Shown: in pieces, positions 18,929-57,405 of the stretch
How the letters are laid out: each line of letters starts with the position of its first letter
How positions within the stretch are numbered: the stretch's first letter is position 1
Source: an uncultured Gammaproteobacteria bacterium
GTDB lineage: Bacteria; Patescibacteriota; Microgenomatia; Levybacterales; GWA1-39-11
Assembly (NCBI GenBank): GCA_964537315.1
Contig: CAZIAP010000002.1
Location: forward strand, 107,237 to 171,236
Direction: 5' to 3'
DNA length: 64,000 nucleotides
The notes under the pieces: model-generated
Seen by the model: the letters and a program-made list of their open reading frames with translations, nothing else
What the model was told of the DNA's origin: nothing
Database searches by the model: none
Made by a program: the position numbers and the translations under genes

Positions 18929-20600
18929 GATTAATTCTATAAATAAACAAAGTTGGTCTGTCAAAAACATTTGCTGTATCCTCTACCCCATATACCGGAT
19001 CTCCGAGGTAAAGTAGTGTACACATCACATCACAGTCGGTTTTATAAATTAAGTTATATTGCTTGCTTGAGTTAAGAGATTCATATAATCGATTTCCTAA
19101 AGGGAAAGCTTGTGGGTTCTCTATACGGGATTTTATAATTCTCTGGCTTGGCAAGATTATAACGTCATTAGTAGATAACTTGGAGGGTAGATCGGCTAGA
19201 AGATTTGGATCGTGTTCAAGATCATAAAAGTTGAAGAGGGTGATATTAGAGAAGTGGTTGTTAAAAGGCAGTATTCCCAGATCGTATACTTCAGATAATA
19301 TATGTGTGTCGTCTGGAAACGTATTTTTTAAATGCTCTGCAGCTTCGATTCTTGTGTCAGGAGAATAGTAAACTGTTTTTATAAGTGCAGCAGACCAAAC
19401 TACGCTGCTGAAAATGCATAAGATACTTACGAAAGATATTGTTGCTCTAGTCTTTTTTTTAAAATTAACAGGTAGATTATTAAACAATAAAGATAGTGAT
19501 AGAGTCACTCCAAGATATATAAACGGAAGTGTAGGTACCATGTAGCGGGTCCATTTTACAAAAAAGACAAGCTGTGGGATAAGCAAAAACATAAAAAATA
19601 TAACAAAAAATAGATGAAGAACCTGCTTTTTTTGAAATACATGTATTATCAACAATATAAAGGCTGGCAAAGAAATGATTGCCATAATAGGATTTAGAAG
19701 AAACGGAAAGACATATAAGCTCTGATATAAACCTGGTACTGTATCGATGAATGAACCAGTATAAAAAACAGGGAGTGTCCCTAACGCAACAGATGATTCG
19801 TATTGCATGGAATTTCGGAAAGAGTTCCAGTCAAGAAAAGCAAATGGATTAGTAAGTACAAAAATTCCCATACTGATGATTGCAAGCAGCATGGTGTTAG
19901 CCGCTAATACTCCTATATACCTAGCTAACTTCTTAAACGAATAAGGTTTATATTTTTTCTTTAGAATGAATACAAGAGCCAGAATGGGTAGAGGAACAAG
20001 CGAAAGGGAAGAAATTTTAATAGAACAAAGTACTCCTAGTGTGACTCCTGCGTATATGAAGTTAGAGTAATTTTTTGTCTTGAGGTATCGAAGAAGAAAG
20101 TATAAAAGCAGCAAAGAAAAAAAAGTCAGATACAATTCAAAAGTACCGAAGTGTGCGTATTGGATAAGCCCTACACTGAAAGTTGCTAGAAAGACAGAGA
20201 ATAATGACCATTTAGGAGAGACAATAGTTCTTGCTGCAAGATATAGTATGATAATCGTTCCCACGGATAGAACTGCAGACAGTACTCTTCCAATAATTAT
20301 TGCTTGTTCAAATGTTACGGTGAATATGTCTCCAGAGTTAAATAACCCTGAAACGCCGTTGAAGATTACTCCTAGCGCATAAACTGTATAGATAGGAAGA
20401 CTGCCATAAGCGAAAAACTTTGGATTGAGCTGCTCTGGAAATTTAAGCTGACTAATTGCTGACGCAATATTTCTTTCGTCGGGATGAAAATAAAACGGTG
20501 CACCCCAGTTTAAATCATAAAATCGAAGTAAAGAAGCTATTATTAATAAAACGAGGAGGATAAGAATTTTGTTTTTAAAGTAAGTAGATAGTAGACTCAT
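18921..20600 (-). CDS. GT-C-fold membrane glycosyltransferase, 'HPDER' paralog 2
   Basis: First loop APFYFHPDERNIASAI. The overall architecture aligns with the 17231-18928 gene. Confidence 0.55.
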   Translation of the reverse strand: MSLLSTYFKNKILILLVLLIIASLLRFYDLNWGAPFYFHPDERNIASAISQLKFPEQLNPKFFAYGSLPIYTVYALGVIFNGVSGLFNSGDIFTVTFEQAIIIGRVLSAVLSVGTIIILYLAARTIVSPKWSLFSVFLATFSVGLIQYAHFGTFELYLTFFSLLLLYFLLRYLKTKNYSNFIYAGVTLGVLCSIKISSLSLVPLPILALVFILKKKYKPYSFKKLARYIGVLAANTMLLAIISMGIFVLTNPFAFLDWNSFRNSMQYESSVALGTLPVFYTGSFIDTVPGLYQSLYVFPFLLNPIMAIISLPAFILLIIHVFQKKQVLHLFFVIFFMFLLIPQLVFFVKWTRYMVPTLPFIYLGVTLSLSLLFNNLPVNFKKKTRATISFVSILCIFSSVVWSAALIKTVYYSPDTRIEAAEHLKNTFPDDTHILSEVYDLGILPFNNHFSNITLFNFYDLEHDPNLLADLPSKLSTNDVIILPSQRIIKSRIENPQAFPLGNRLYESLNSSKQYNLIYKTDCDVMCTLLYLGDPVYGVEDTANVFDRPTLFIYRINHD

Positions 20601-30070: not shown

Positions 30071-30376
30071 ATGGCAAAATCTACAAAAACAATGACCCCA
30101 CTTTTCGGAAATGTTTTAATCAAACCACTAGAAGCAGAAGAAAAAACTGCAGGTGGTATATATTTACCTGACACAGCAAAAGAGAAGCCTCAGGTCGGTG
30201 AAGTTATGGCAGTTGGAAAAGGATCATGGGATGAGGATGGAGAAAAAAGGATTCCTATGGAAGTATCCGTTGGTCAAAAGGTTATGTATAAAAAATGGGG
30301 TGGAAATGAGGTAAAAGTAGGTAATGAAGAGTGGACAATCGTAGATCAGAAAGATATATTGGCAATAGTAAGTTAG
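30071..30376 (+). CDS. groES: Co-chaperonin GroES
   Basis: 101 aa. Shows the GroES mobile-loop and roof-hairpin pattern (KPLEAEEKTAGGIYLPDTAKEKPQVGEVMAVG). Confidence 0.9.
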   Translation: MAKSTKTMTPLFGNVLIKPLEAEEKTAGGIYLPDTAKEKPQVGEVMAVGKGSWDEDGEKRIPMEVSVGQKVMYKKWGGNEVKVGNEEWTIVDQKDILAIVS

Positions 30377-30391
30377 AAATATAGAAATAAA

Positions 30392-30414
30392 ATGATAAGT
30401 CTTTTACTTATCAT
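30392..30414 (+). other. Perfect 9-bp stem / 5-nt loop hairpin between groES and groEL, followed by T-rich tract
   Basis: ATGATAAGT-CTTTT-ACTTATCAT read directly, followed by TATTTACTTTAATTTTTAT. Confidence 0.4.
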
Positions 30415-30435
30415 TATTTACTTTAATTTTTATAG

Positions 30436-32094
<1,659 letters not shown>

Positions 32095-41143: not shown

Positions 41144-41464
41144 GTTTATAGTATAGAGTATTAAGTATTAATTATTAACGAGTTATTTATTAATGGGTTA
41201 AAAGGTTAAAAAGTTATTGATGAAAGGCTCAATAATTTGAGTAAACCTAAATCTTAAAATCTAAAAATGGTAAGTACTTTTAGAGATAAAAATTTAAATA
41301 GAAAATCGAAAATTGAAAATACATTTTAAAACTACGAACCATAAACTATTAACTAACCCGCTTTTGGGGGATAATCATCCGTGAACTAATAACTATAAAC
41401 TGATATTCTGTTGACTTTATATTTTTGCTTCTGTTACTCTTAAACTAGCGAGATTTATATTTAT

Positions 41465-43408: not shown

Positions 43409-43454
43409 AGTAAAATACTGGATACAGAATACGGAATACAGTATACTAAAAACT

Positions 43455-44051
43455 ATGCCTAAGCGAACAGTTATATTGATCTTAGTTTTAACTATCTTAA
43501 CAGGAGTTTTGGTGTTTTTAGCGCTTAAGAATGAGCAGAGAACAGCACCTCAACAAGCTGGTGAAGGAGAAAGGATAACCGAAGATACAGCGCTGCCCGA
43601 GAAAACAGCAACTCTAACATTTGATCCTCAAATAATGGAAGCTATACCTTCAACCGCGTCAGCAAACACTGTTGATGTAGTACTCAATGCCAATGAGCAT
43701 ACTATTGATAGTGTTCAGCTCGAGATAGTTTATGACCCTGCTGATCTTTCTAATGTAACAGTGAGTGCACCGGAGAATAACATATTCGGTGGTCCAGGTA
43801 GCTATACTGTCATACCAATGCCTTCAGATCCTGCACTTGGTAGAGTTTCATTTGCAATGGGTATCAGTACTCAAGCTCAAGCAGTACAAGGTGCTGGTCC
43901 TGTAGCACGAATTTCATTCACGGTGAACCCATCAACTACAAAAGATGTTACTCAAATCCAGATCATGGATCGATCTATGATAGTTGAGACAAATAGTCAT
44001 GAAAGTGTTCTTGCGCCGGTTGATCCACTTACTATTAACATTATTCGGTAA
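43455..44051 (+). CDS. Secreted cohesin-like domain protein
   Basis: Signal anchor. The beta-sandwich segment ATLTFDP...VDVVLNANEHTIDSVQLEIVYDPADLSNVTV is cohesin-like. Start chosen at the ATG at 43455 (MPKRTV...). Confidence 0.45.
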   Translation: MPKRTVILILVLTILTGVLVFLALKNEQRTAPQQAGEGERITEDTALPEKTATLTFDPQIMEAIPSTASANTVDVVLNANEHTIDSVQLEIVYDPADLSNVTVSAPENNIFGGPGSYTVIPMPSDPALGRVSFAMGISTQAQAVQGAGPVARISFTVNPSTTKDVTQIQIMDRSMIVETNSHESVLAPVDPLTINIIR

Positions 44052-44888: not shown

Positions 44889-44925
44889 TTGACAATATTT
44901 AGCACTCATGCTATCATTTTGCTAA
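44889..44925 (+). promoter_or_regulatory. hrcA promoter (TTGACA-N17-TATCAT) overlapping a CIRCE-like inverted repeat
   Basis: TTGACA 44889-94 and TATCAT 44912-17. TTAGCACTC (44899-907, exact CIRCE left arm)-N9-TTTTGCTAA (44917-25, 6/9 to GAGTGCTAA). An additional GAGTGC...GCACTC palindrome lies upstream. Confidence 0.55.
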
Positions 44926-44965: not shown

Positions 44966-45688
44966 ATGTACGATCTTACACCTCGCCAGATAGAGATATT
45001 GAAAAATATTGTACGTGAGTACATAGACTCTGCTGAGGCAGTGGGCAGCGAAACTTTAGAAAAAAAATATGATCTCGGAGTTTCACCTGCAACTATCAGA
45101 AATGAAATGGCAGATATGGTAAAACTCGGATATCTTGCTAAGCCGCACTCTTCTTCAGGTCGTATTCCTACAAGTAAAGCCTTAAAACTATACGTAAACG
45201 AATTGATGAAAGAGAGAGAGCTCTCGGTTGCAGACGAAGTTGAAGCCAAAGAAAAGGTGTGGGACGTAAGAGATGCAGAGTCACAATTTTTCCGTCAACT
45301 GACACGCAGTCTCTCCCAAAAGACAGGTACATTAGCTGTTGCGGCAACCCAGGAGGGAGACATGTACTTTGCGGGTTATTCTAATATCTTAGATATGCCT
45401 GAGTTCTATGACATTGATATTACAAAAAATTTACTTGCAATTTTAGATGATGTGTCATATTTCGATATGATACTCAAACATATCGAAAATGATTATGCAG
45501 TTATACTTGGTGAAGATTTTGGTTTAGAACCATTAAGACCATACGGATTTGTGTTTTCTAAATATAGCACGAAGAAAAATAGAGAAGGTTCTATAGGTGT
45601 AATCGGTCCTGCCAGGCTACATTATGAATTAGTAGTCCCATGTGTTAGATACTACGGAAGCCTAGTTGGTGAAATTGCAGATTGGTAA
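44966..45688 (+). CDS. hrcA: Heat-inducible transcription repressor HrcA (short, 240 aa)
   Basis: N-terminal wHTH LTPRQIEILKNIVREYIDSAEAVGSETL. Position is immediately upstream of grpE-dnaK. Confidence 0.7.
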   Translation: MYDLTPRQIEILKNIVREYIDSAEAVGSETLEKKYDLGVSPATIRNEMADMVKLGYLAKPHSSSGRIPTSKALKLYVNELMKERELSVADEVEAKEKVWDVRDAESQFFRQLTRSLSQKTGTLAVAATQEGDMYFAGYSNILDMPEFYDIDITKNLLAILDDVSYFDMILKHIENDYAVILGEDFGLEPLRPYGFVFSKYSTKKNREGSIGVIGPARLHYELVVPCVRYYGSLVGEIADW

Positions 45689-45702
45689 GTTTAAAAATTG
45701 AT

Positions 45703-45790
45703 CTAATTTCTAATTAACTAATTAATCTAAATTTTTGGAAATTGGATAAATTAGGACTTTTTTAGAAATTAGAATAATTAGAGCAATTAG
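45703..45790 (+). repeat. CTAATT x3 / AATTAG x4 direct- and inverted-repeat array in the hrcA-grpE intergenic region
   Basis: CTAATT at 45703, 45710 and 45718. AATTAG at 45749, 45767, 45776 and 45785. A near-identical CTAATTTCTAATT..CTAATTAA core recurs after dnaK at 48302-48335. Confidence 0.6.
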
Positions 45791-45795
45791 AAATT

Positions 45796-46260
45796 ATGCA
45801 AGATAAGAAAGTAAAGAAAAAGGACGATACGGTTCTCAAAATAGATGAACTAGAGCAAAAAATTAGTGAATTAGATGACCAATATAAAAGAGCTATTGCA
45901 GATTATCGAAATCTTGAAAAAAGAGTTGCTGAAGATAGACTTGAGTTCATTAAATTTGCAAATAAAGAATTATTGGACAGATTGCTTCCTGCATTTGACA
46001 CTTTGTTTTTGGCAGAGAAGTATGTTCAAGATGATGGTCTGAAGCTTACGATTAAGTCACTCTCTGACGCTTTGGAGCAAGTAGGCGTTAAAAGAGTGGA
46101 TACGACAGGAAACAAATTCGATCCACAAACAATGGAGTGTGTAGAGACAGTTGAAGGTGAAGAAGGTAAAGTAACAGAAGAAGTGAGACCAGGATTTATG
46201 TTAGCTGATAAAACACTTCGTCCTGCATTAGTAAAAGTGGGAAAGGAGAAAAAAGAATAA
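45796..46260 (+). CDS. grpE: Nucleotide exchange factor GrpE
   Basis: RAIADYRNLEKRVAEDR coiled-coil region and the GrpE C-terminal beta domain. 154 aa. Confidence 0.85.
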   Translation: MQDKKVKKKDDTVLKIDELEQKISELDDQYKRAIADYRNLEKRVAEDRLEFIKFANKELLDRLLPAFDTLFLAEKYVQDDGLKLTIKSLSDALEQVGVKRVDTTGNKFDPQTMECVETVEGEEGKVTEEVRPGFMLADKTLRPALVKVGKEKKE

Positions 46261-46342
46261 GGTAGGATGTATAAAGTATTAAGTTTTCTAAAGATTTAGT
46301 ATATACTTAATACCTGATACATAGTACTTGAAATAAAAAAAT

Positions 46343-48286
46343 ATGGCAAAAATTATAGGTATTGATTTAGGTACAACAAACTCAGCAGTTGCTGTCATGG
46401 AAGGTGGCAGCCCTAAAGTGATCTTTTCATCAGAAGGACGAAACGTTACTCCGTCAGTTGTAGACCCAGTCGAAAGAGTTGTTGGCGACGTGGCAAAGCG
46501 TCAGATGGCTTTAAAGCCAAAACGAATCATCTACTCGATTAAACGATTAATGGGTCACCGTTTTAAAGATGACGCAATACAGGAAGAAATAAAACGACTT
46601 CCCTACACTATAAAAGAAGGTCGCGATGGCATGGCCGTCGTTGAAGTAGAAGGAAAAACATACACTCCTCAAGAAATATCTGCACAAATTTTACAGAAGC
46701 TTAAAAAAGATGCTGAGAGTTATTTGGGTGATACTGTTACTCAGGCAGTTATTACCGTACCAGCATACTTTGATGATGCTCAGCGTCAGGCAACTAAGCA
46801 GGCGGGAGAGATTGCAGGGCTTGAAGTACTGCGGGTGGTTAACGAGCCAACTGCAGCTGCACTCGCGTACGGATTGGATAAAAAGCACGCGCACACTATT
46901 GCAGTCTACGATTTAGGAGGAGGAACATTTGATATCTCATTGCTTGAACTAGGTGAAGGAGTATATGAAGTGAAAGCTACAAATGGTGATACACACCTTG
47001 GAGGAGATGATTTCGATAAAGCAATTATTGACTGGTTAGCAGAGGAGTTTAAGAAAGAAAATGGCGTTGATCTGCGTCAAGATCCTCAGGCGCTACAACG
47101 CTTGAAAGAATCTGCTGAAAAAGCAAAGATCGAGTTATCTACTTCCATGGAAACTGAGATTAATCAGCCATTTATTACCATGGGTCAAAATGGTCCTCTT
47201 CACTTAACAGTAAAACTTACCAGAAGCAAACTTGAACAGTTAATCGACGGACTTGTACAGAAAACATTTAAACCAGTTGAAGATGCTCTAAAAGACGCAG
47301 GTTTGACTGCAGATAAAATTGATGAGGTTATATTGGTCGGAGGTATGACTCGTATGCCAAAAATCGTCGATGCCGTAACTAAATTTTTTGGAAAGGAACC
47401 AAACAAAAGTGTTAATCCAGATGAAGTAGTATCCATTGGAGCAGCTGTACAAGCAGGAGTTCTTGGAGGAGATGTAAAAGACGTTTTACTTCTGGATGTT
47501 ACACCGCTGACACTGGGAATCGAGACATTAGGAAGTGTGGCAACTCCACTTATACCACGTAATACGACTATTCCTACCAAAAAATCACAAGTCTTTTCAA
47601 CCGCAGCAGATAATCAGACACAGGTTGAGATACACGTAGTGCAAGGAGAGCGACCGATGGCAAGTGATAATAAATCGCTAGGTAAATTTGTCCTCGATGG
47701 AATTCCTCCAGCTCCAAGAGGAGTGCCACAGATTGAGGTTTCGTTTGATCTTGATGCCTCTGGTATTTTGTCGGTTACCGCCAAAGATAAAGCCAGCGGA
47801 AAAGAGCAGAGTATTAAAATCACGGGTTCAACAGGACTGACAGATGATGAAATTCAAAAAATGACTCAGGAAGCAGAAAAGAATGCGGAAGAAGATCAAA
47901 AGAAAAAAGAGTTAATAGAAGCAAAAAATCATGCAGAGAATCTAGCTTTTACAGCTGAAAAATCACTTAAAGACGCAGGAGATAAAGTGGCTGAAGATCT
48001 CAAAAAAGAGATAACGGATAAAGTCGCTGCAGTTCGTGAAGCAATTAAAGGTGATAATAAAGAAGAGATTGATAGCAAGACTAATGAGCTTTCAGAAAGC
48101 ATGCAGAAAATCGGCCAAGAGATGTATGGATCGGCAGGCTCACCACAGGATGGTTCTGACAGCTCATCGCAAGACTCTCGTGACTCTGCTCATGACGGAA
48201 CAGCTGAAAACTCAGATGATCAAAAGAAAGACTCCTCAGATAATCCAGACGAGCCTGTTGAAGGTGAAGTCGTAGATGAGAAGTAA
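46343..48286 (+). CDS. dnaK: Chaperone DnaK (Hsp70)
   Basis: [29 protein letters not shown], and an acidic C-terminal tail. Confidence 0.95.
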
Positions 48287-48301
48287 TTCTCATAAAAATT
48301 A

Positions 48302-48335
48302 CTAATTTCTAATTGATCTAATTAACCAAAATTAG
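48302..48335 (+). repeat. Second copy of the CTAATT-array element, downstream of dnaK
   Basis: CTAATT at 48302, 48309 and 48318, plus AATTAG at 48330. The core aligns with 45703-45723 with few mismatches. Confidence 0.55.
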
Positions 48336-48447
48336 TCTCAATATTAAAATCCCTAATCAATAAGAAGTTAGACTCTAGATATCTGAAGTGATTAATTTTA
48401 ATTTCTCCCGTTTGTATTGATTTTCTTCTTTATGCTACTATTAATAT

Positions 48448-48738
48448 ATGCCGTGTGAAGCAAATGAGGTTTATACTGACTTTGGGTGTGTTCCTAATGA
48501 TCCAATCGGATTTGTAGAAAGATTTTACGGAATAGGACTTTCGGTTATAGGAATGGTGGCTGTACTATTCCTTATAATTGGTGGGTATCATATTCTGACT
48601 TCTCAAGGGAGTCCTGAAAAGCTGCAAAAAGGTCGTGAATATATCTTGTATTCTATTTTAGGGTTACTGCTTGGAGTATTTGGGTTCGTTTTCGTACAGA
48701 TAATAACCGGTGTATTACATATTCCCGGATTTAGCTAA
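48448..48738 (+). CDS. Small 2-TM protein (VirB2/TrbC-pilin-like topology; alternatively holin-like)
   Basis: 96 aa. Polar N-terminus with two Cys (CEANEVYTDFGC), two hydrophobic helices separated by TSQGSPEKLQKGRE, and a short tail. Confidence 0.35.
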   Translation: MPCEANEVYTDFGCVPNDPIGFVERFYGIGLSVIGMVAVLFLIIGGYHILTSQGSPEKLQKGREYILYSILGLLLGVFGFVFVQIITGVLHIPGFS

Positions 48739-48744
48739 AGACTT

Positions 48745-51162
48745 ATGAAAAAATTTCTGCCCAAATTTGTACTTATCACATTTTTCTCTATTGCCTTTCT
48801 CCTTGTAGGTACTCTGACTAGCGTTAGTGCTCAGACATTAGACTCTCCGAATGATGTTAATAACGGTAACTGGGTTGAGGATCCAGAGGTGACATTTGTC
48901 GGAAAGGCAGCAAACAGAGCAAACGATTTTTTAAACTGGACATTGCAAAATTATAACTGGCTATGTGTAGAAAAAGCCGGTGATGCCTGTGTAAATACAT
49001 ATGACAATAATCCCTTAGTTGAGTTTTGGGAAATGGTGCGTAATATCATATATGCTTTACTTCTCTTATTTGTTTTGGGAACTGCGGGTGTAATTATAGT
49101 TACGCGAGGTCAAAACATCACTATTATGCGTTTTGTGCCTAGATTTATCGTAATTATTTTACTTGTTACATTTTCATTTGCGTTAGTTCAGTTCTTATAT
49201 GTTGTAGTTGATATTGTCCAAGGATTTTTCCTTCGACCTGATGGACCAGAAGGACCGCTAATTTCATCAGCTGATCTGCTTTATATAGCTTTTCCTTATG
49301 AATTTACTGGCTTTAGGGCACTAGGATCTGATAATGACGAATCCGCATTTATCTCATTGTTGCTTGTAAAACTAACCGCAATTACTTATTATGTGATGAC
49401 AGGTGTGTTATTAGTGCGAAAAATCATCCTCTGGTTTTTCCTTATCGTGTCACCTATATTTCCTCTGCTTATCTTTTACCGCCCTGTTCGCAATACCGCA
49501 AAGATTTGGGTTGGAGAGTTCTTCCGTTGGTTGTTGTACGCGCCTCTCTTTGCACTTTTTCTACACGGTTTGGTGGTTATGTGGAGAGATAAAATTCCAC
49601 TCGCATTTGATTTTAACTCACAGGGTAGTGTTGCAGGCACAGACGTACTCTATCCTACAGCAGTAAACATTTTAATCGGTGGACCAGGTCAACAGATAGG
49701 GATCAATAACTCAGTTAATCTTCCTGATACTTTCGCACTATACGTAGTTGCTTTAATCATGCTTTGGGTGGTTATCTTGCTACCATTTTTACTACTTCGA
49801 ATTTTCTTAGATTACTTTAATTCCATCTCATTTAGCGGATTTATGTCTAAGCAGGTCAACAAAAACTTTGCTTTCTTAAACCCACGTGGTCCATCGGGTG
49901 GTCCAACTCCTCCGCCTCCTCCGGGTAAGGTGTTTCCAACCGGCATGGCGCGTCAGTTGCCATTTTTGAATAAAGCCGCAAAAACAATTGAAGTTGGTAG
50001 GCCGGTCAGTACCAGTAGTACGAGAGATATTAGATCATCCGTGCAGTCTAATGTTAGCCAACCTGTAGCAGTAAGAGAGGTTAACGAAGTTCTCAAGTCT
50101 GTCAATATAAGTGTTCCTAAGATGCAGGACGTTGTGAAGTATGAGAGAGCGTTATTAAGTAATAATATTACTGAACGTCAAACAGTCACACAGTTCCGTG
50201 AGACATTAGAAAAAATTGCAAATCCAGCACAGGTTACTTCAGTTACAGAGCGTCAGCAGTTTAGCCAGATACACGAGAAGCTAACTACCCAGCAGGAGAG
50301 AGGAAACCCGTTGGCAACATCAATTCTTAAGGCTGCTGGAAAAACAACTGTAAGTAGTACAATTGATATTAATCAGCAGCTTCGAATGTTGCTCCAGCAG
50401 CTAGCGAGCCCATCTACTGTAAACCCACGTGTACGTCAAAAGATGAGTACACTTAAAACACAGCTTACAGGTGCTCAACATAGTGGAAATAATTTAGCAA
50501 CAACTGTGCTGACTACTGCTGAGAAAATCAGTAAAAAAGAGCTAACTAAAGAGCAGGAAGATGCAGCGATTGAGGAGATCAAGACAAAGATCCAGGAGCA
50601 AAAACAGACAAGCGATCCAGTTACTCAGTCTGTTGTATCTACGATGCAACAAGCACAGGCTGTAACAGAAACTCAATCATTACCTGTTATAAATAGAGTC
50701 CAGCAAGTAAGCATTGAAGATTATGAGGAGGTACGAAAGATGTGGGTAGAGAATTATGAGACATTAGAACCTCCTAAGACGCTTGAAGGCAAGCAACTGG
50801 AGAGAGAGGAATGGGTTAGAAGTGACGTGCAGAAGATTAATGAAGCAGTCACTCTGCTTTCATCTGTTGAGCCGCAAAAAGTTAATGAAGGTATGGAGAT
50901 GGTCGGAAGTATTTTGCCGTTCCTACTCATGGGAGGTTTCTCTAAATCTGAGGTTGTTGCCTACTTGAAAGCGAAGCTTGCAGCTGCCAAGTCTATACTG
51001 GAAGCAGCCGAAAAGCAGAAAGACGATGAAGATTCGATGATATATCGCGAGACCAAGAAAGAAGAGGCAAAAGAAATGAGCATAAAACATGCTATAGAGC
51101 TTCCGAGTGAAAAAGAATCGCCTAAAAATTCGGAAGACGACGAGACTAAGACTCAACCGTGA
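48745..51162 (+). CDS. Large polytopic membrane protein with Sec signal peptide, ~6 TMs, poly-Pro hinge and ~400-aa coiled/Q-rich cytoplasmic tail (VirB6/TrbL-like architecture)
   Basis: Signal peptide ...TSVSA|QT. The TM block spans roughly aa 95-330. GGPTPPPPPGK follows. A long hydrophilic C-terminus carries degenerate internal repeats. Confidence 0.4.
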   Translation: MKKFLPKFVLITFFSIAFLLVGTLTSVSAQTLDSPNDVNNGNWVEDPEVTFVGKAANRANDFLNWTLQNYNWLCVEKAGDACVNTYDNNPLVEFWEMVRNIIYALLLLFVLGTAGVIIVTRGQNITIMRFVPRFIVIILLVTFSFALVQFLYVVVDIVQGFFLRPDGPEGPLISSADLLYIAFPYEFTGFRALGSDNDESAFISLLLVKLTAITYYVMTGVLLVRKIILWFFLIVSPIFPLLIFYRPVRNTAKIWVGEFFRWLLYAPLFALFLHGLVVMWRDKIPLAFDFNSQGSVAGTDVLYPTAVNILIGGPGQQIGINNSVNLPDTFALYVVALIMLWVVILLPFLLLRIFLDYFNSISFSGFMSKQVNKNFAFLNPRGPSGGPTPPPPPGKVFPTGMARQLPFLNKAAKTIEVGRPVSTSSTRDIRSSVQSNVSQPVAVREVNEVLKSVNISVPKMQDVVKYERALLSNNITERQTVTQFRETLEKIANPAQVTSVTERQQFSQIHEKLTTQQERGNPLATSILKAAGKTTVSSTIDINQQLRMLLQQLASPSTVNPRVRQKMSTLKTQLTGAQHSGNNLATTVLTTAEKISKKELTKEQEDAAIEEIKTKIQEQKQTSDPVTQSVVSTMQQAQAVTETQSLPVINRVQQVSIEDYEEVRKMWVENYETLEPPKTLEGKQLEREEWVRSDVQKINEAVTLLSSVEPQKVNEGMEMVGSILPFLLMGGFSKSEVVAYLKAKLAAAKSILEAAEKQKDDEDSMIYRETKKEEAKEMSIKHAIELPSEKESPKNSEDDETKTQP

Positions 51163-51223
51163 CGAAGTTTAGTTGTGAGAGAGGTCAGAGTGTGTCTATA
51201 ATAAACAAGTTATTAGTTATCTT

Positions 51224-54200
51224 ATGTTTGGAAATCTATTTAATCAGAAAAAAGATGGAACGGAAGAACAGGTTCCTCCTACACCTGTGCAGGTGCCACA
51301 GCAGGGAGTAAATCCTGTTGTTGACCCTTCTCAGCCGCAGATGACACAACAACCTCCACAAGTAGTGCAGACAGGTAGCGTAGAACAGACGACTACAGGT
51401 ATGGGAATTCAGGCAGGCCTGCCCGCAATGCAAAGCAACGCGTTTCAGGCGGGACCTGTTGTGTTTAGTCAGACTGACACAGTAACAAATACTCAAAATG
51501 TACCAATTCAACCTCAGCAACCGGGGCAAAATCCACAAGCCGTGTCTCAGCCAACTATGCCAGATCAAACAGTACCAGGTCAGCCTATTGCTCCTGATAA
51601 TCCAGGGATGGGAGCAGAGAAAATGCAAAACGTATCGGCTCTTTCTCGTTTGGATGCCAGAGCAACGCAGGTATTACACCATGCGCAAGAAGAAACCAGG
51701 AGGATTCAGCAAGCACTTATAGAACCTGACCAGATACTTTATGGCTTGATCTATGACAGTGGGGTATACAAGCTCCTTGAACAGTTCTCAATTGATGCAT
51801 CAAAAATTGCAAAAGATATACAAGGAAAATCCCAACAGGGTACATTTACAGGACAGCCAACTCTAAGCCCGCAGTCTCAAGAAATTTTTGATACTGCTTT
51901 TAATTCGGTAAAAGCGCGACAGGCAAGTTTTATAACTCCTGAGGATATTCTACTAGCCCTTTTCAATGCAGCAGCAATGGCTGAGTTTTTCAGAACTCAG
52001 GGAGTTGATAAAGGAAAAGTAGAAGAAAAGCTTGCAAAAAACACTAGTTTTGTGGGAGATGGAAAGAGATCAGTTCTGGATAAATACAGTATAGATCTTA
52101 CACAAAATGCAAGAGACGGCCTATTAGATCCAGTTACTGGACGTGACGTTGAGATAGAAAGACTTGTACACATTTTGCTTCGTAGAACAAAAAATAATCC
52201 GATAATTATAGGTGAAGCAGGTGTAGGAAAAACAGCTATAGTCGAAGCTATTGCACAAAAAATTGTAGATGGACAGATTCCTGAAGATCTAAAAAACAAA
52301 AAAATTATTCAGCTAGACCTTGCTTCGATGATTGCAGGTGCTGCTCGTAGAGGTGAGTTTGAAGAGCGCCTACGTAGTATTATTCAGGAGGTGCAAGCTT
52401 CTGGACAGATAATTTTATTCATCGATGAAATACATACTCTAGTTGGAGCAGGCGATTCGGGAGGCGCGCTGGATGCATCAAATATTATTAAACCATATCT
52501 TTCTCGTGGGCAGCTTCAGCTAATTGGTACAACCACAACTGCTGAGTTCAGGAAGTATTTTGAAAAAGACAAAGCATTTGAAAGAAGATTCCAACCGATT
52601 ATGGTTCAAGAACCGGACGAAGAGGTTGCGGTAGAGATGTTAAATGTTATCAAACCTAAATATGAAAAGTATCACAACGTTGTGATGACGCCTGAGTCTA
52701 TCGAAGCTGCTGTTGTGCTATCTAAAAAATATATCGGAGAAAGATTTCTACCCGATAAAGGTGTGGATTTGCTTGATGAAGCAGCTGCAGAGGTAAAGCT
52801 TGCTAAAGCAGAAGGGAAACGGCAGGATAATAATATTGTTAAAACTGATATAGAAAAAGTAGTTTCAAGTTGGACGGGGATTCCGATCACACGACTTACA
52901 GAAGACGAAAGTGAAAAGTTGCTGCACTTAGAAGATCATATTCATAAACGCCTCATTGATCAGGAGGAAGCTGTTGCAGCGGTCTCAGAGGCAGTACGTA
53001 GAGGGCGAATCGGTCTCGCTTCAGCAAACAGGCCGATTGCTTCATTTATATTTTTGGGTCCTACAGGTGTCGGTAAAACGGAGCTTGCCAAAACCCTTGC
53101 TGAGATTTTGTTTGGCAGGGATGACGCAACTATCCGACTTGATATGTCTGAGTATATGGAAAAGCATGAGGTTGCAAAACTTATCGGTGCTCCTCCGGGA
53201 TATGTAGGTTATGAAGAAGGCGGACAATTAACAGAAGCTGTAAGATCAAAACCATACTCAATTGTGCTCCTTGATGAGGTTGAGAAGGCACATCCTGATG
53301 TGTTTAATATTCTACTGCAAATTTTGGAAGATGGAAGACTCACCGATAATAAAGGTAATACAATTTCATTTAAAAATACTATTATTATTGCCACTTCAAA
53401 TCTTGGAAGCCACATAATCCAAAAGTTTTTACTTGAACGGGCAAAAAATTCTGGAAAATCTACCGAGAATATCGAAAGTTCTACAACTGAGAAGAATCCA
53501 GATGAATCCAAAGGTAAAGAAAATACTGAAAAACAGGCTAACTTAGAAAATGACGAGAAGAATAATGATGTCTCAACAGAGGGTGCACAATCTGGTAAGG
53601 ATACAACTGGATCAAAGTCATATTCAGAACAACGAGTAAATCTACAGCTTGGAGGAAATACTGATAAGAAAACCGATGGTGAGTTCGAAGAGCTGACAAA
53701 ATTACTGCAAGAAGAGCTGCATAAATTCTTCCGTCCTGAATTGTTGAATAGATTTGATGATCTTGTAGTATTCAAGCCGCTTGCACAGCGTGATATGATG
53801 CAGATTGCAAAGCTCGGTATCGGTAAAACTCAAAAACTCTTAAAAGAGCAAGGATTTGACATCCAAATTACGGATCTAGCACTGGATCAGCTGGCAAAAG
53901 AAGGGTACGATCCTGTATATGGTGCTCGACCTTTGAGAAGATTAATTCAAAACTCAATTGAAAACGCAATCGCTATTGCATTAATTAGTAAACAGTTTGT
54001 TGCTGGTGACACCATTATTATTGATTACGACACTACACAGCAAAAGTTTGCTTTCTCAAAGGGAGCTTCTCAAAACCAGTCAGGACAGCCACAGGGAGAG
54101 GGTTCTCAACCACCTACTGGGCCAGGTCAGCCTGTCAATACCCAAGGTACAACAAATCAACAAACTGGATTACCCCAGAACTCTCCTCAAGCTCAGATAC

Positions 54201-54463
54201 CAAATCAGAACACAGGTCAGGTAGTTAATCAAAATCCTGCAACACAGCAACCTGTTCAGCCAACTGCTCCACAAGAAGTGTACTATGGTGTTCCTCCTCA
54301 GAATCAGCAAGTAAATTCTCAGCCAGTTCAACCAAATCAACCTATTGGACAAGAAAATGGAACAGGTATAGTGCAGCCACCGCAAACACCTCCACAGTAT
54401 CCGCAGACTAACGGTGCGGGTCCGGCAGGAAATGGCGCAACCATGAATACGTCTGTATCCTAG
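51224..54463 (+). CDS. ClpC/ClpA-like double-ring AAA+ ATPase with Q/P-rich N- and C-terminal extensions and a low-complexity insert in D2
   Basis: Clp_N-like repeat. D1 Walker A IIIGEAGVGKTAIVEAIA, Walker B ILFIDEIHTLVGAG. D2 Walker A FIFLGPTGVGKTELAKTLAE, Walker B IVLLDEVEKAHPDV. The short inter-ring linker means no ClpB-type M-domain. A roughly 100-aa K/E/S/T-rich insert at 53433-53735 replaces the usual ClpP-binding IG[FL] loop. Confidence 0.8.
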   Translation: MFGNLFNQKKDGTEEQVPPTPVQVPQQGVNPVVDPSQPQMTQQPPQVVQTGSVEQTTTGMGIQAGLPAMQSNAFQAGPVVFSQTDTVTNTQNVPIQPQQPGQNPQAVSQPTMPDQTVPGQPIAPDNPGMGAEKMQNVSALSRLDARATQVLHHAQEETRRIQQALIEPDQILYGLIYDSGVYKLLEQFSIDASKIAKDIQGKSQQGTFTGQPTLSPQSQEIFDTAFNSVKARQASFITPEDILLALFNAAAMAEFFRTQGVDKGKVEEKLAKNTSFVGDGKRSVLDKYSIDLTQNARDGLLDPVTGRDVEIERLVHILLRRTKNNPIIIGEAGVGKTAIVEAIAQKIVDGQIPEDLKNKKIIQLDLASMIAGAARRGEFEERLRSIIQEVQASGQIILFIDEIHTLVGAGDSGGALDASNIIKPYLSRGQLQLIGTTTTAEFRKYFEKDKAFERRFQPIMVQEPDEEVAVEMLNVIKPKYEKYHNVVMTPESIEAAVVLSKKYIGERFLPDKGVDLLDEAAAEVKLAKAEGKRQDNNIVKTDIEKVVSSWTGIPITRLTEDESEKLLHLEDHIHKRLIDQEEAVAAVSEAVRRGRIGLASANRPIASFIFLGPTGVGKTELAKTLAEILFGRDDATIRLDMSEYMEKHEVAKLIGAPPGYVGYEEGGQLTEAVRSKPYSIVLLDEVEKAHPDVFNILLQILEDGRLTDNKGNTISFKNTIIIATSNLGSHIIQKFLLERAKNSGKSTENIESSTTEKNPDESKGKENTEKQANLENDEKNNDVSTEGAQSGKDTTGSKSYSEQRVNLQLGGNTDKKTDGEFEELTKLLQEELHKFFRPELLNRFDDLVVFKPLAQRDMMQIAKLGIGKTQKLLKEQGFDIQITDLALDQLAKEGYDPVYGARPLRRLIQNSIENAIAIALISKQFVAGDTIIIDYDTTQQKFAFSKGASQNQSGQPQGEGSQPPTGPGQPVNTQGTTNQQTGLPQNSPQAQIPNQNTGQVVNQNPATQQPVQPTAPQEVYYGVPPQNQQVNSQPVQPNQPIGQENGTGIVQPPQTPPQYPQTNGAGPAGNGATMNTSVS

Positions 54464-54464
54464 T

Positions 54465-56408
54465 ATGGAAAATCCGCAGTCTTCAAGTTTTACATCACTG
54501 TTTCAATCTCGTAGGTTTCTAATTGCAGCAGGATTTATTTTACTTCTTGTGCTTGTTGGAGTAGGAATATTTTTTATCTTAAGCAGCAAGCCTCCACTCG
54601 AGCCTATTCCTGAAGGCTCTGTGTACACTCCCGACGAAGTAACTGTACAGTTTGCGCAAGGTTATACACCTGCTCCGCAGGGAGAGAATGAAAATTGGGA
54701 TAGGTTGTATGCAAAGCTCCAAGAACTGGGCGTTCAGTCATACTCTAAAGTGTTCGATTCAAATGATCCTGATTTATCAAGATATTATAAGCTTAAGCTT
54801 TCTTCTGATGCTGAAGTTGCCACAATCCGTGAAGAGTTATATAAGCTTGATGAAATAAAAGCTTCTGAACCTGAGTATATCCTCAGTACTCAGTTGAGTG
54901 CTAATGATGCAGAATATTCTGGTATGTGGGGACTGAAAAAAATTGATATTGAAAAAGCTTGGGATGTAACCAGAGGCTCAAACTCTGTGAAAGTCGCAGT
55001 GGTAGATACGGGAATTGACTATAATCACCCTGATTTCGCAGGGAGATCAATTATTAAGGGTAAGGACGTATCAACTTGCGACAGCACATACCAAGAGCTT
55101 CTTGCTTCAAACGGTCAATGTACGAAACCTAAACAACCTGATAATGACCCATTAGATAGTAATAACGGACACGGCACTCACGTTGCGGGAACAATAGGCG
55201 CTGCGACTAATAATGGAATAGGAGTCTCTGGAGTAAATTGGAACGTAACACTAATTGCCGTAAAAACGATGGGAGAAGGTGGCGCAGGGGGTATGTCTGA
55301 AATTGCAAATGGATTGGTAGATGCAGTGGATAGAGGAGCTGATGTGGTAAATATGAGTCTTGGTGGAGAGGGAACATGTACATCTCAGATGCAACAAGCG
55401 ATAAATTATGCCAGAAATAAAGGAGCTGCTATAGTAGTCGCTGCCGGAAACGGTGACAGAAATGGTAATCCTATTGATGCCTCTCGGGTTACTCCAGCGA
55501 GCTGTACAGGTGTAATTGTGGTTGGAGCAACGGGACCAAATGATGAACGCTCAAGTTATTCAAACTACGGAACACGGGTAGATCTAGCGGCGCCTGGAGG
55601 AAATGAACCAAGAGGAACATCATCATGCACAAAATCTAATTGCATAACTTCAACATGGCCAGGAAGACAGTACAGATCGGTTCAAGGTACATCTATGGCA
55701 GCGCCTCACGTAGCAGGTGTCGCAGCTCTTCTGCTGGCACAAAATGGCAGCCTAACACCGGATGACATTAAAAGATGTCTTATTAACAGTGGAAACCCAA
55801 TAAGTACAGACAGACCAATTGGTGGAAAAAGACTTAATGCATATAGTGCGCTTAACGGCTGTATAGCAAGTGCGAATCAGCCGACGACTCCTCCTGCAAA
55901 TCCGCCTACTGCTACTCCAACAGATACGCAAGCGCAAACACCAGCCATTGAACCATCAGAGTATTATCTAAAAGGTTTTACATACTCGGATGCTAATAAT
56001 AATCTTACCTTTGATTCAGGAGAGACCATGGTTGCGGGAGTCATATTGAAGTTGACTGATGAATCAAACGTAAACACTAATATTCCTACTGGAGCAGATG
56101 GTAAGTTCGAATTTAGAAATTTAAAACCTGGTTCTTATCTATTAACCGCAACAGTTGGTACTCGAGATGTGATGGAGTATAGAATAGGACTTGATTTAAA
56201 TATGAGCAGCCAAAACATACCAATTCCGATTCCCTCAGTAGAACCGTCTGATCCCGATAATCCTTCACAAGGGGAGAATAGGGTAATTATAACAGGCTCA
56301 CCTACTCCAACTCCTCGTCCGTTACATACATGTGTAGAGAAGACTACTCAGCAACGTGTTAATAACCGTGTCTTGCAGCTTAAGTACCTCGACTGCACTC
56401 CTATATAA
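54465..56408 (+). CDS. Membrane-anchored subtilisin-like serine protease (S8) with C-terminal Cna-B/CarboxypepD_reg-like domain
   Basis: N-terminal TM. Catalytic triad motifs VAVVDTGIDYNHPDF (Asp), HGTHVAGTIGA (His) and GTSMAAPHVAGVAALL (Ser). The C-terminal segment DGKFEFRNLKPGSYLLTA is a prealbumin-like fold. Confidence 0.85.
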   Translation: MENPQSSSFTSLFQSRRFLIAAGFILLLVLVGVGIFFILSSKPPLEPIPEGSVYTPDEVTVQFAQGYTPAPQGENENWDRLYAKLQELGVQSYSKVFDSNDPDLSRYYKLKLSSDAEVATIREELYKLDEIKASEPEYILSTQLSANDAEYSGMWGLKKIDIEKAWDVTRGSNSVKVAVVDTGIDYNHPDFAGRSIIKGKDVSTCDSTYQELLASNGQCTKPKQPDNDPLDSNNGHGTHVAGTIGAATNNGIGVSGVNWNVTLIAVKTMGEGGAGGMSEIANGLVDAVDRGADVVNMSLGGEGTCTSQMQQAINYARNKGAAIVVAAGNGDRNGNPIDASRVTPASCTGVIVVGATGPNDERSSYSNYGTRVDLAAPGGNEPRGTSSCTKSNCITSTWPGRQYRSVQGTSMAAPHVAGVAALLLAQNGSLTPDDIKRCLINSGNPISTDRPIGGKRLNAYSALNGCIASANQPTTPPANPPTATPTDTQAQTPAIEPSEYYLKGFTYSDANNNLTFDSGETMVAGVILKLTDESNVNTNIPTGADGKFEFRNLKPGSYLLTATVGTRDVMEYRIGLDLNMSSQNIPIPIPSVEPSDPDNPSQGENRVIITGSPTPTPRPLHTCVEKTTQQRVNNRVLQLKYLDCTPI

Positions 56409-56472
56409 ATTTCACCACTGGAAACCTACTTGTCTAGCAATCTGACCTCCCATTTGATAAAATGACTAGCGT

Positions 56473-57345
56473 ATGGCATCACGTGATTATTATGAAATAC
56501 TAGGTGTTTCAAAAAATGCAACTGCTGAAGAGCTGAAGCGCGCGTATCGTAAACTAGCTCTTGAATATCACCCTGACAGAAATAAAACTAAAGAAGCAGA
56601 AGCGAAATTCAAAGAGTTGAACGCAGCTTACGAAGTGTTGAAAGATCCTGAAAAACGCCGAGTTTATGATCAGGTTGGTCCGTCAGCTTTTGAAAATGGT
56701 GGTGGAGCAGGAGGACCATTTGGAAATGCTGCAGGAGGACAGTACGGGCCGTTTACATATACATATAGTACTTCAGGAGGAGAAAATCCTTTTGAGGGGT
56801 TCGGAGGCTTTTCAGATCCGTTTGACATTTTTGAACAGTTCTTTGGAGGAGGATCCCCTTTTGGTAGAAGAAAGCCTGCTTATTCCTTGCGTATAGATTT
56901 TATGGAGTCGGTCAAGGGAGCTGAGAAAAAAGTTACAATTGAAGGAAAGTCAAAAACAATTAAAATCCCGGCCGGAGTGCAAACAGGGTCGCGCATAAGA
57001 TTTGACGAGTTTGATATTGTTTTAGAAGTAGAATCCCACCCTAAATTTCACAGAGAGGGATACGATATCGTAACAGTAGAGAGTATTTCTATGACAATGG
57101 CCGCTTTGGGAGGAACCATTGAGGTTGAAACAGTGGAGGGTAAAGTAAAGCTTAAAGTACCCGCAGGTACTCAACCAAACGCAATTATCAGAATCAAAGG
57201 AAAGGGAGTGCCACATATTAAAGGAAATGGCAAAGGTGATCATTTCGTGAAAGTAAACGTAGAGATTCCAAAAAAGGTAAGTGGAAAACAAAAAGAACTT
57301 CTTGAGCAACTTGATAGTGAACTGAAAAAGAAAAAATGGTTCTAA
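56473..57345 (+). CDS. dnaJ: DnaJ-like co-chaperone lacking the Zn-finger domain (type II/CbpA-like)
   Basis: J-domain [33 protein letters not shown], a G/F-rich region and C-terminal substrate-binding domains. There are no CxxCxGxG repeats. Confidence 0.8.
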
Positions 57346-57405
57346 AATCAGAATAAGGAAGCCCTCACACTTTATACATTCTACATAATACTTTATACTA
57401 GTTGT

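Follow-up and report, generated by a model that had tools for sequence, protein, structure and literature searches.

Phased CTAATT and AATTAG arrays in a Microgenomates dnaK operon are candidate arms of an intercistronic RNA hairpin

What are short, phased hexamer repeats doing between the genes of a chaperone operon? The heat-shock operon hrcA-grpE-dnaK lies in a 64,000-nucleotide stretch of an uncultured bacterium (contig CAZIAP010000002.1, positions 107,237 to 171,236; hereafter the window; GC content 37%), which we placed as Levybacteria-like (Candidatus Levybacteria; Microgenomates, within the candidate phyla radiation, CPR) by comparing DnaK-centred loci from public genomes. The hrcA-grpE spacer carries copies of CTAATT followed by copies of the reverse complement AATTAG, and a similar array recurs directly past dnaK. 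The original prediction took these arrays for the binding array of a DNA regulator, CtsR-like or heat-shock-specific and distinct from HrcA and its operator CIRCE (controlling inverted repeat of chaperone expression), or alternatively for a small intergenic repeat element, with a role inside the operon. We consider it about an even call that the arrays are instead the arms of an AU- and GU-rich hairpin in the hrcA-grpE spacer, one case of a lineage-wide class of heptad-phased elements, with a role in mRNA processing or stability.

The three genes all lie on the + strand (hrcA, 44966-45688; grpE, 45796-46260; dnaK, 46343-48286, with its stop codon at 48284-48286), in an order that the DnaK-centred loci keep across Microgenomates. 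The arrays are real, and every hexamer originally listed is where it was said to be. CTAATT starts at 45703, 45710 and 45718 (spacing 7 and 8) and AATTAG at 45749, 45767, 45776 and 45785 (45749-45790; spacing 18, 9 and 9), the final copy ending 6 nt 5' of the grpE ATG (45796); the post-dnaK array (48302-48335) comprises CTAATT at 48302, 48309 and 48318 and AATTAG at 48330. Over the 64-kb window as a whole, neither hexamer is in excess (27 copies of CTAATT and 22 of AATTAG vs. ~32 expected), and clusters of at least three same-orientation hexamers within 25 nt were observed three times vs. never in 300 dinucleotide-preserving shuffles. Both CTAATT arrays belong to a ~40-nt direct repeat, AAAAATT(GAT/A)CTAATTTCTAATT(AA/GAT)CTAATTAAyC, whose copies start 7-9 nt past a stop codon, one past hrcA and one past dnaK (48294-48335 aligns to 45690-45734); these are the only two copies of the element in 64 kb, and both are in the dnaK operon. 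In the first copy, phased CTAA(TT) units with a period of 7-9 occupy 45696-45734 on the + strand (AATTGA TCTAATT TCTAATT AACTAATT AATCTAAAT), within which Tandem Repeats Finder (TRF) reported 45696-45730 (period 8, 4.2 copies), and the second copy (48294-48335, + strand) reads AAAAATTA CTAATTT CTAATTGAT CTAATTAAC followed by a mini-hairpin CTAATT...AATTAG. The spacings in the window are 7, 8, (9) and 7, 9, 9, (8), with a TRF period of 7-9 and 13-20% indels, and a strict period-7 detector misses the window's CTAATT/AATTAG arrays.

As RNA, the whole hrcA|grpE spacer is predicted to fold into a long, imperfect intercistronic hairpin (45689-45784, + strand) in which the CTAATT array is the 5' arm and the AATTAG array the 3' arm (minimum free energy, MFE, -23.3 to -23.5 kcal/mol; z -3.2 to -3.6). 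Its helix comprises 26 A-U, 5 G-U and 5 G-C pairs, and the sense strand folds better than the antisense strand (-23.5 vs. -17.9 kcal/mol, 5.6 worse). The left arm (45696-45734) pairs with 45762-45784 in the MFE fold; the right arm (45762-45796, + strand; TTAGAAAT TAGAATAAT TAGAGCAAT TAGAAATT A(TG)) extends into the start codon of grpE and includes the AATTAG copies at 45767, 45776 and 45785. The remaining copy (45749) belongs to the apical part (45718-45754, + strand), where it pairs with the CTAATT at 45718, and where an inner stem AUCUAA/UUGGAU uses the G-U pairs 45728-45744 and 45734-45738. The repetitiveness of the arms gives rise to two competing pairing registers, and both arrays are predicted to be more than 75% paired at 37°C. 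A second predicted hairpin, unrelated to the first in sequence, occupies the grpE|dnaK spacer (46260-46329, + strand; arms GTATAAAGTATTAAGT / ACTTAATACCTGATAC; -19.5 kcal/mol; z -2.7 to -3.4; the MFE and centroid structures coincide), and the post-dnaK copy, a left arm with its mini-hairpin, is weakly structured (z -1.5). Searches against Rfam gave no match here at the gathering score, nor at E ≤ 1.

On the + strand, neither a sigma70-like promoter nor an intrinsic terminator was predicted from hrcA to the end of dnaK, spacer arrays included, and a strong sigma70-like promoter (TTGACA-17-TATCAT, with a TG; 44889-44925, + strand) lies upstream of hrcA; hrcA, grpE and dnaK would therefore most simply form a single transcript. 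A CIRCE-like site, TTAGCACTC-N9-TTTTGCTAA at 44899-44925, overlaps this promoter and is the sole match in 64 kb at ≤3 mismatches, although it is degenerate, its palindrome keeping only the outer TTAGCA/TGCTAA halves. The promoter/CIRCE-like block, ttgacaaNaNttagcaStcatgctatcattttgctaata, is almost invariant in three related loci (L100, L103 and L083) despite saturated synonymous sites, and to judge from this pattern the operon's conserved operator is the CIRCE-like site over the hrcA promoter, not the CTAATT/AATTAG arrays. That the arrays are distinct from CIRCE (TTAGCACTC-N9-GAGTGCTAA, an inverted repeat over a heat-shock promoter) is confirmed, with no match at ≤3 mismatches in 45689-45795 or 48287-48447. 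The CtsR box, (A/G)GTCAAA-NAN-(A/G)GTCAAA, had 11 matches vs. 12.4 expected in the window (≤3 mismatches), none of them in or near the dnaK-operon spacers. HrcA itself is 240 amino acids (aa) long throughout these Microgenomates, and the Pfam HrcA family is matched in homologues; HrcA is typically ~340 aa long.

Three lineages of the window's genus, found by way of their GrpE homologues (L099-L102, L103-L105 and L106), keep the gene order unchanged, with DnaK 95-96% and HrcA 88-92% identical to those of the window and synonymous sites near saturation (39% identity). We found that these genomes bear a homologous CTAATTTCTAA element in different operon spacers than the window (grpE|dnaK in L099 and L106, post-dnaK in L099), recognisable by the common blocks ATTGAyCTAATTTCTAA, TTGGAAATTGGA and AATTAGAAATT; of these, TTGGAAATTGGA is the block that the apical part of the window hairpin shares with the L106/L099 element. 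All copies in four same-genus genomes are confined to the dnaK operon. Post-dnaK, L103 has an array of three CTAG/CTAA units, and among the orthologous post-dnaK arrays (CTAATTT/CTAATTGAT/CTAATTAAC in the window, CTAAATTT/CTAATTCAC/CTAAATAA in L099 and CTAGTTAC/CTAACTT/CTAAAAG in L103) the core is conserved while the spacer letters vary. The elements of L099 and L106 are identical at 67/70 positions (96%) vs. 47% at 4-fold sites. The L099 element folds at -26.3 kcal/mol (z -4.6; 9 G-U pairs, 0 A-C mismatches) vs. -8.1 for its reverse complement, and the L106 element at -13.8 vs. -8.7 kcal/mol antisense; over the window hrcA|grpE, L099 grpE|dnaK and L100 array hairpins, whose compared copies are related to each other, G-U pairs number 17 and A-C mismatches 0-1. 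L103 has a sequence-unrelated grpE|dnaK hairpin of -34.5 kcal/mol (z -5.9), with TAG-N4 and CTA-N4 heptads making up its arms. The hairpins of the sister genomes stop 13-35 nt short of the ATG.

Logan contigs of the window's own strain are identical; the spacers of L103, L104 and L105 are identical save for one single-nucleotide polymorphism in the L104 post-dnaK spacer and are thus uninformative about repeat-number change. No plus-or-minus-one-unit changes were seen where orthologous arrays are comparable; presence and absence do differ (L083, L103). Two independent Logan assemblies of the window's strain (L081 and L082) both break at 45766, inside the AATTAG array; same-strain contigs also break at 45437, and the breaks may thus mean low coverage rather than repeat heterogeneity. 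Between L103 and L105, otherwise identical strains, 49/50 differences fall within hrcA (6.8% divergence, mostly third positions; L103 2750-5192), and this divergence breaks off sharply at the hrcA|grpE spacer, a sign that a recombination tract may end there. In L083, a ~90-nt stretch (about 48292-48388) that includes the post-dnaK array is missing while both flanks align, and the locus aligns well with the window at the promoter/CIRCE-like site and upstream of the next gene; neither terminal inverted repeats nor a target-site duplication was found at the indel boundaries. Taken together, these sequence comparisons indicate that the element is selected where present, tied to the dnaK operon, movable within it, and dispensable. 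As for conservation in related genomes, a homologous element exists within the genus, though in other spacers of the operon, and the slightly more distant L083 has none.

Phasing of this kind extends well beyond the window. We counted 4-mer self-matches in the 264 spacers (25.9 kb) of the window and 46 Microgenomates dnaK loci; they peak sharply at lag 7 (z = 29), lag 14 (z = 38), lag 21 (z = 17) and lag 28 (z = 11), with z = 7 at lag 8 and the remaining lags mostly near zero (lags 1, 9 and 10 are among the few at z 5-8); the window's own intergenic DNA gives z = 9.6 at lag 7. Period-7 arrays have a density of 0.77/kb in intergenic vs. 0.03/kb in coding DNA. Their cores are specific to lineage and spacer (ACAATTG, ACTAGTn, AGTATTA, TTATAAG, GTAAACA, TAGAAnn, TCTAATT, ACATGTA and others), the same core often recurs in adjacent spacers of an operon (the window, L017, L099 and L001), and a common layout is a direct array followed by its inverted copy, often abutting a stop or start codon. 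Further arrays in the window lie at 41150-41321, 43411-43446, 57369-57399 and 30374-30389. The second of these, five heptads (AATACTG GATACAG AATACGG AATACAG TATACTA) between a dockerin-domain gene and a cohesin-domain gene, ends 8 nt before an ATG at 43455 and is 33/36 identical in L100, with five units in both and all differences at unit position 6, the flanking coding DNA being ~75% identical; this pattern is, as far as alignment can tell, a signature of constraint on the phased core. In L100 the AATACnG array forms the right-hand side of a hairpin rich in G-U pairs, the left arm of which the window lacks, and the orthologous spacer of L103 is 4 nt long, without an array.

We compared co-directional spacers of 20-200 nt, similar in length and AT content. 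Heptad arrays were present in 8/20 hrcA|grpE, 6/24 grpE|dnaK and 8/31 dnaK|downstream spacers vs. 5/98 other spacers of the same loci; for the operon-internal spacers alone the difference is 14/44 vs. 5/98 (odds ratio 8.7, p=5e-5), and for the three dnaK-operon classes with the window excluded it is 20/72 vs. 5/85 (p=3e-4). Strong folds (z ≤ -3) are likewise more frequent in internal spacers (13/29 vs. 10/71, p=0.002). This enrichment of arrays was not seen in non-Microgenomates control loci (1/24 vs. 2/64). The idea of a small intergenic repeat element is thus upheld in part, as phased arrays that are enriched in the hrcA-grpE-dnaK spacers of Microgenomates, and an operon-internal role likewise gains partial support from the enrichment of arrays and strong hairpins and from an CTAATTTCTAA element that stays with the operon in four same-genus genomes.

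We reasoned that the wobble pairing on the sense strand, the lack of a predicted promoter at the arrays, the recurrence of unrelated hairpins, the conservation of the element where it occurs and the lack of consistent occlusion of the start region speak, in combination, for an intercistronic element at the RNA level. In such a scheme, the CTAATT and AATTAG arrays would form the 5' arm and the 3' arm, respectively, of an imperfect, AU/GU-rich hairpin in a single hrcA-grpE-dnaK transcript, assembled from short units phased at ~7-9 nt, with a second, partial copy of the 5' arm past dnaK. The hairpin may influence how the mRNA is processed or how stable it is, either uncoupling the repressor cistron hrcA from grpE-dnaK or protecting the downstream segment; a post-transcriptional role of this kind, intercistronic processing or segmental stability as in Bacillus subtilis, seems the most likely. 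The element would belong to a class of heptad-phased intergenic arrays in Microgenomates whose cores change fast and which preferentially accumulate in heat-shock operon spacers, the repeats probably arising and spreading by slippage or template switching among nearby spacers.

Several observations weigh against this interpretation. The spacers of L083, the DnaK of which is 88% identical, are 8, 21 and 74 nt long and carry no arrays, and the element is hence dispensable. The three differences between the L099 and L106 elements are not compensatory, and two of them break pairs. Some arrays have no inverted partner, such as those of TAGA type upstream of grpE in L012, L013 and L018; some array hairpins (L004, L035) fold better antisense, and over all Microgenomates co-directional spacers the sense-strand folding bias is not significant (p about 0.08). 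Lastly, the gene calls behind the enrichment test follow a crude open reading frame (ORF) rule.

We weighed four other explanations, all of which are less supported: slippage debris, a protein-binding array, an RNA thermometer and a miniature mobile element. The arrays could be non-functional or selfish DNA, degenerate heptamer-type simple sequence repeats (SSRs) made by replication slippage and template switching, tolerated by the cell and with the hairpin a by-product, which we regard as possible but rather doubtful. Heptamers are the most over-represented class of long SSRs in many bacteria and are attributed to polymerase slippage in the passages of PMC4679880 and PMC4692102 that cite Mrazek 2007; cores do differ in orthologous spacers between genomes, L083 is without arrays, and a core shared by neighbouring spacers of one operon suggests local copying. 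Directly past the dnaK stop codon, L004 even has a perfect (GTAAACA)n run, 17 units long or longer (L004 5918-6138, with an assembly gap inside and an intrinsic terminator after it), the cleanest heptamer microsatellite in the data set. Mere debris, however, sits poorly with an L099/L106 element that is far better conserved than 4-fold sites, with an AATACnG array that persists in L100 despite synonymous sites at 39%, with strand-specific wobble pairing and operon-specific enrichment, or with orthologous arrays that show no unit-number differences. A miniature mobile element (MITE or REP-like) inserted in the spacers would explain why a homologous element occupies different spacers in sister species, why ~90-100 nt are present or absent relative to L083 between conserved flanks, and why the L099 and L106 copies are so alike. 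Relatives do carry other hairpins of MITE-like appearance in their spacers, a GC-richer repeat GTCATYCTGAA...TTCAGRATGAC, often doubled, with a REP/MITE-type look (L007 3884-4140; L013 5933-6005; L030 5894-5992; L035 3891-4000; L044 3891-4000). Yet with two copies in 64 kb, both in one operon, copies in four genomes that never leave the dnaK operon, no terminal inverted repeats or target-site duplication at the boundaries relative to L083, and no transposase context seen, we hold a mobile element to be very improbable.

A phased array of 4-nt cores (CTAA/TTAG) with variable AT-rich spacers, direct and inverted, might also be read by a multimeric protein, whether a ribbon-helix-helix-type DNA repressor (like those of the omega heptads or the ParG tetramer boxes) or an RNA binder with a ~7-nt footprint (cold-shock protein, S1, HutP/TRAP-like); this we judge unlikely. 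The core is kept while the spacer varies in the post-dnaK arrays and in the ATAC array (43411-43446), dnaK-operon spacers have a ~9-fold higher density of phased CTA[AG] arrays (7 vs. 2 arrays), MacGregor proposed that cold-shock proteins, S1 or CsrA bind TAACTGA heptamers upstream of start codons (PMC4679880), and TTTTGAT heptads of Vibrio cholerae recruit regulators (bioRxiv 10.1101/2021.05.14.444153). Many cores coexist, however, within one genome and between genomes such that no single factor fits; UAG/UAA/UGA phasing shows no sense/antisense bias; and no candidate protein was identified. The originally proposed CtsR-like or heat-shock DNA regulator fares no better: neither a CtsR box nor a promoter is predicted at the arrays, sister species have the element in different spacers and L083 lacks it, its core varies by genome, strict conservation among the operon's regulatory sequences is seen at the promoter and CIRCE-like site upstream of hrcA, and the arms, wobble-complementary rather than DNA-palindromic, pair only on the mRNA strand through G-U wobbles, for which the palindromic DNA site of a dimeric protein would have no need. 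An RNA thermometer, in which the AU/GU-rich hairpin would hide the grpE start region when cool and melt on heat shock, appears quite improbable. One register (45704-45715 with 45785-45796) does reach the A of the AUG, the helix is nearly all A-U and G-U, the arrays are associated with the heat-shock operon, and positions -12..+3 have a predicted unpaired probability of 0.32 at 25°C but 0.54 at 55°C. The MFE register nevertheless leaves the grpE start region free, no Rfam thermometer (ROSE, fourU and the like) was matched even at E ≤ 1, the hairpins of sister genomes end well before the ATG, L083 has no element, and across 142 spacers the start region is equally accessible in array-bearing and other spacers (0.49 vs. 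0.47 at 25°C, p=0.59), for which reason start-codon occlusion was also rejected as a general trait of array-bearing spacers.

Some narrower identities were tried and set aside. Many arrays begin at a real stop codon and continue with TAG/TAA/TGA every 7 nt, which gave a HutP-like (UAG-N4)n or phased-stop reading its appeal; the lag-7 excess of stop triplets is equal on both strands (sense 164 vs. a baseline near 95; antisense 124 vs. a baseline near 72), and every unit triplet repeats. All six intergenic copies of TAGAAAT in the window are in chaperone-operon spacers; heat-shock specificity of TAGA-type arrays was rejected, other genomes having such arrays before metG, rodZ-like, radA and DUF192 genes. 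Judged by eye, the post-dnaK array of the window would suit a Rho-utilisation site (phased UC in a C>G region), but the G-rich arrays of relatives, which are followed by intrinsic terminators, would not. Finally, the AATTAG array is complementary to the post-dnaK array at 21/22 positions (48304-48325), and long-range pairing of the grpE leader with the post-dnaK region around grpE-dnaK remains speculation, its duplex energy of -22.5 being equalled by unrelated sites in the window.

Several characterised systems resemble parts of this arrangement. PMC11313650 and PMC3446304 (the latter citing Homuth 1999) describe cleavage by RNase Y between hrcA and grpE in B. subtilis. The B. subtilis/B. cereus processing site is a cis element in the same spacer of the same operon that uncouples repressor from chaperone cistrons; it has no sequence similarity to the element here, which is a long AU/GU phased-repeat hairpin known by its predicted fold, shifts spacers among sister species and is absent from L083. 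In the 5' untranslated region of Haemophilus influenzae hmw1A, a hairpin of the heptamer SSR (ATCTTTC)n is cut by RNase III, and control is post-transcriptional (PMC12721329). There too, ~7-nt tandem units form one arm of a long hairpin in untranslated mRNA, the other arm being partly G-rich or wobble-paired; that array, however, precedes an adhesin gene and, with >10 units, is a perfect SSR subject to phase variation, whereas the units here are degenerate, 3-4 per arm with spacing 7-9, inside a heat-shock operon and without observed unit-number variation. Heptameric long SSRs are further described as the short tandemly repeated repetitive (STRR) sequences of cyanobacteria, GGGAATC of Xanthomonas/Nostoc and TAACTGA of Beggiatoaceae (Mrazek 2007; PMC4692102; PMC4679880), the last occurring directly upstream of start codons (PMC4679880). 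These are likewise 7-nt tandem intergenic units, often directly 5' of start codons without a Shine-Dalgarno sequence and sometimes in inverted pairs, and their function is obscure or suspected to be post-transcriptional; those genomes have one or a few dominant heptamers genome-wide, whereas in Microgenomates the cores vary by spacer and genome and the arrays are concentrated in one operon.

Among DNA operators, that of HrcA is likewise an inverted repeat tied to hrcA-grpE-dnaK, but CIRCE lies at the promoter, and only 44899-44925 resembles it here. Ribbon-helix-helix operators (omega of pSM19035; parH of ParG) and the CtsR heptad direct repeat consist of short units in a 7-8 bp phase, direct and inverted, and are found at promoters or centromeres with one fixed core per protein. 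The arrays described here differ from them in having no promoter, no CtsR consensus, variable cores and RNA-type complementarity of their arms. The element may accordingly combine known kinds, heptamer-type repeat hairpins and intercistronic control of a dnaK operon, in an uncultured lineage.

Downstream of dnaK (48448-57345) lie a type IV secretion system (T4SS)-pilin-like gene of 96 aa, an 805-aa protein without a Pfam match, ClpB (so labelled from the precomputed Pfam domains of contig L096, which is from the same strain), a subtilase bearing SdrD-B/CarboxypepD_reg-like domains, and DnaJ. The pilin-like and 805-aa genes are syntenic as a pair in L083, L099 and L103, and the conserved segment directly 5' of the pilin gene (48407-48447) is likely its promoter. 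Between dnaJ and a 108-aa ORF without a Pfam match, the array at 57369-57399 reads cacttta tacattc tacataa tacttta tactagt (TAC-N4 x5, period 7). The groES|groEL spacer (30374-30441) has TAGAAATA x2 from the groES stop codon on, then a hairpin ATGATAAGT...ACTTATCAT. A 321-nt divergent intergenic region (41144-41464) holds AGTATTA x3, GGTTAAAA x2.6, AAATCTTA x2.5 and GAAAATn x3.7, and its AGTATTAAGT motif recurs in an arm of the grpE|dnaK hairpin (46271-46284) and in the hrcA|grpE spacer of L004. A stretch first seen as gene-free (18971-20079) is occupied by a 559-aa ORF on the minus strand. Heptad arrays also occur outside Microgenomates (L049 980-1104, L058 2235-2260 and L065 6683-6788), the types being cTGAnnn/cTAAnnn in Anaerolineae, TGACTAC x3-4 in a Chloroflexota metagenome-assembled genome (MAG) and direct-plus-inverted GAATTTA-type in a Berkelbacteria MAG.

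We offer a bolder suggestion only tentatively, and think it improbable as a whole: that these arrays represent an undescribed class of 7-nt-phased cis elements in Microgenomates, perhaps also in other CPR bacteria and Chloroflexi, built of a 3-4-nt core with a free spacer, often arranged as wobble-paired hairpin arms, held under purifying selection and concentrated in the hrcA-grpE-dnaK operon. A multimeric factor or RNase would read them on the mRNA and set the stoichiometry of chaperones and repressor, in a layer of heat-shock control separate from HrcA/CIRCE.

CPR bacteria have tiny genomes with few recognisable regulators, and how they tune their stress operons is almost wholly obscure. 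Were the arrays merely tolerated products of slippage, they would still hold a lesson for annotation, that such motif arrays are not to be read as transcription-factor operators. If they are functional, phased-repeat hairpins would provide a sequence-flexible, structure-based means of uncoupling cistrons in the main chaperone operon, the Bacillus paradigm of hrcA|grpE processing would extend to an uncultured radiation, and a function would be found for the heptameric repeats whose excess in the intergenic DNA of bacteria has long gone unexplained.

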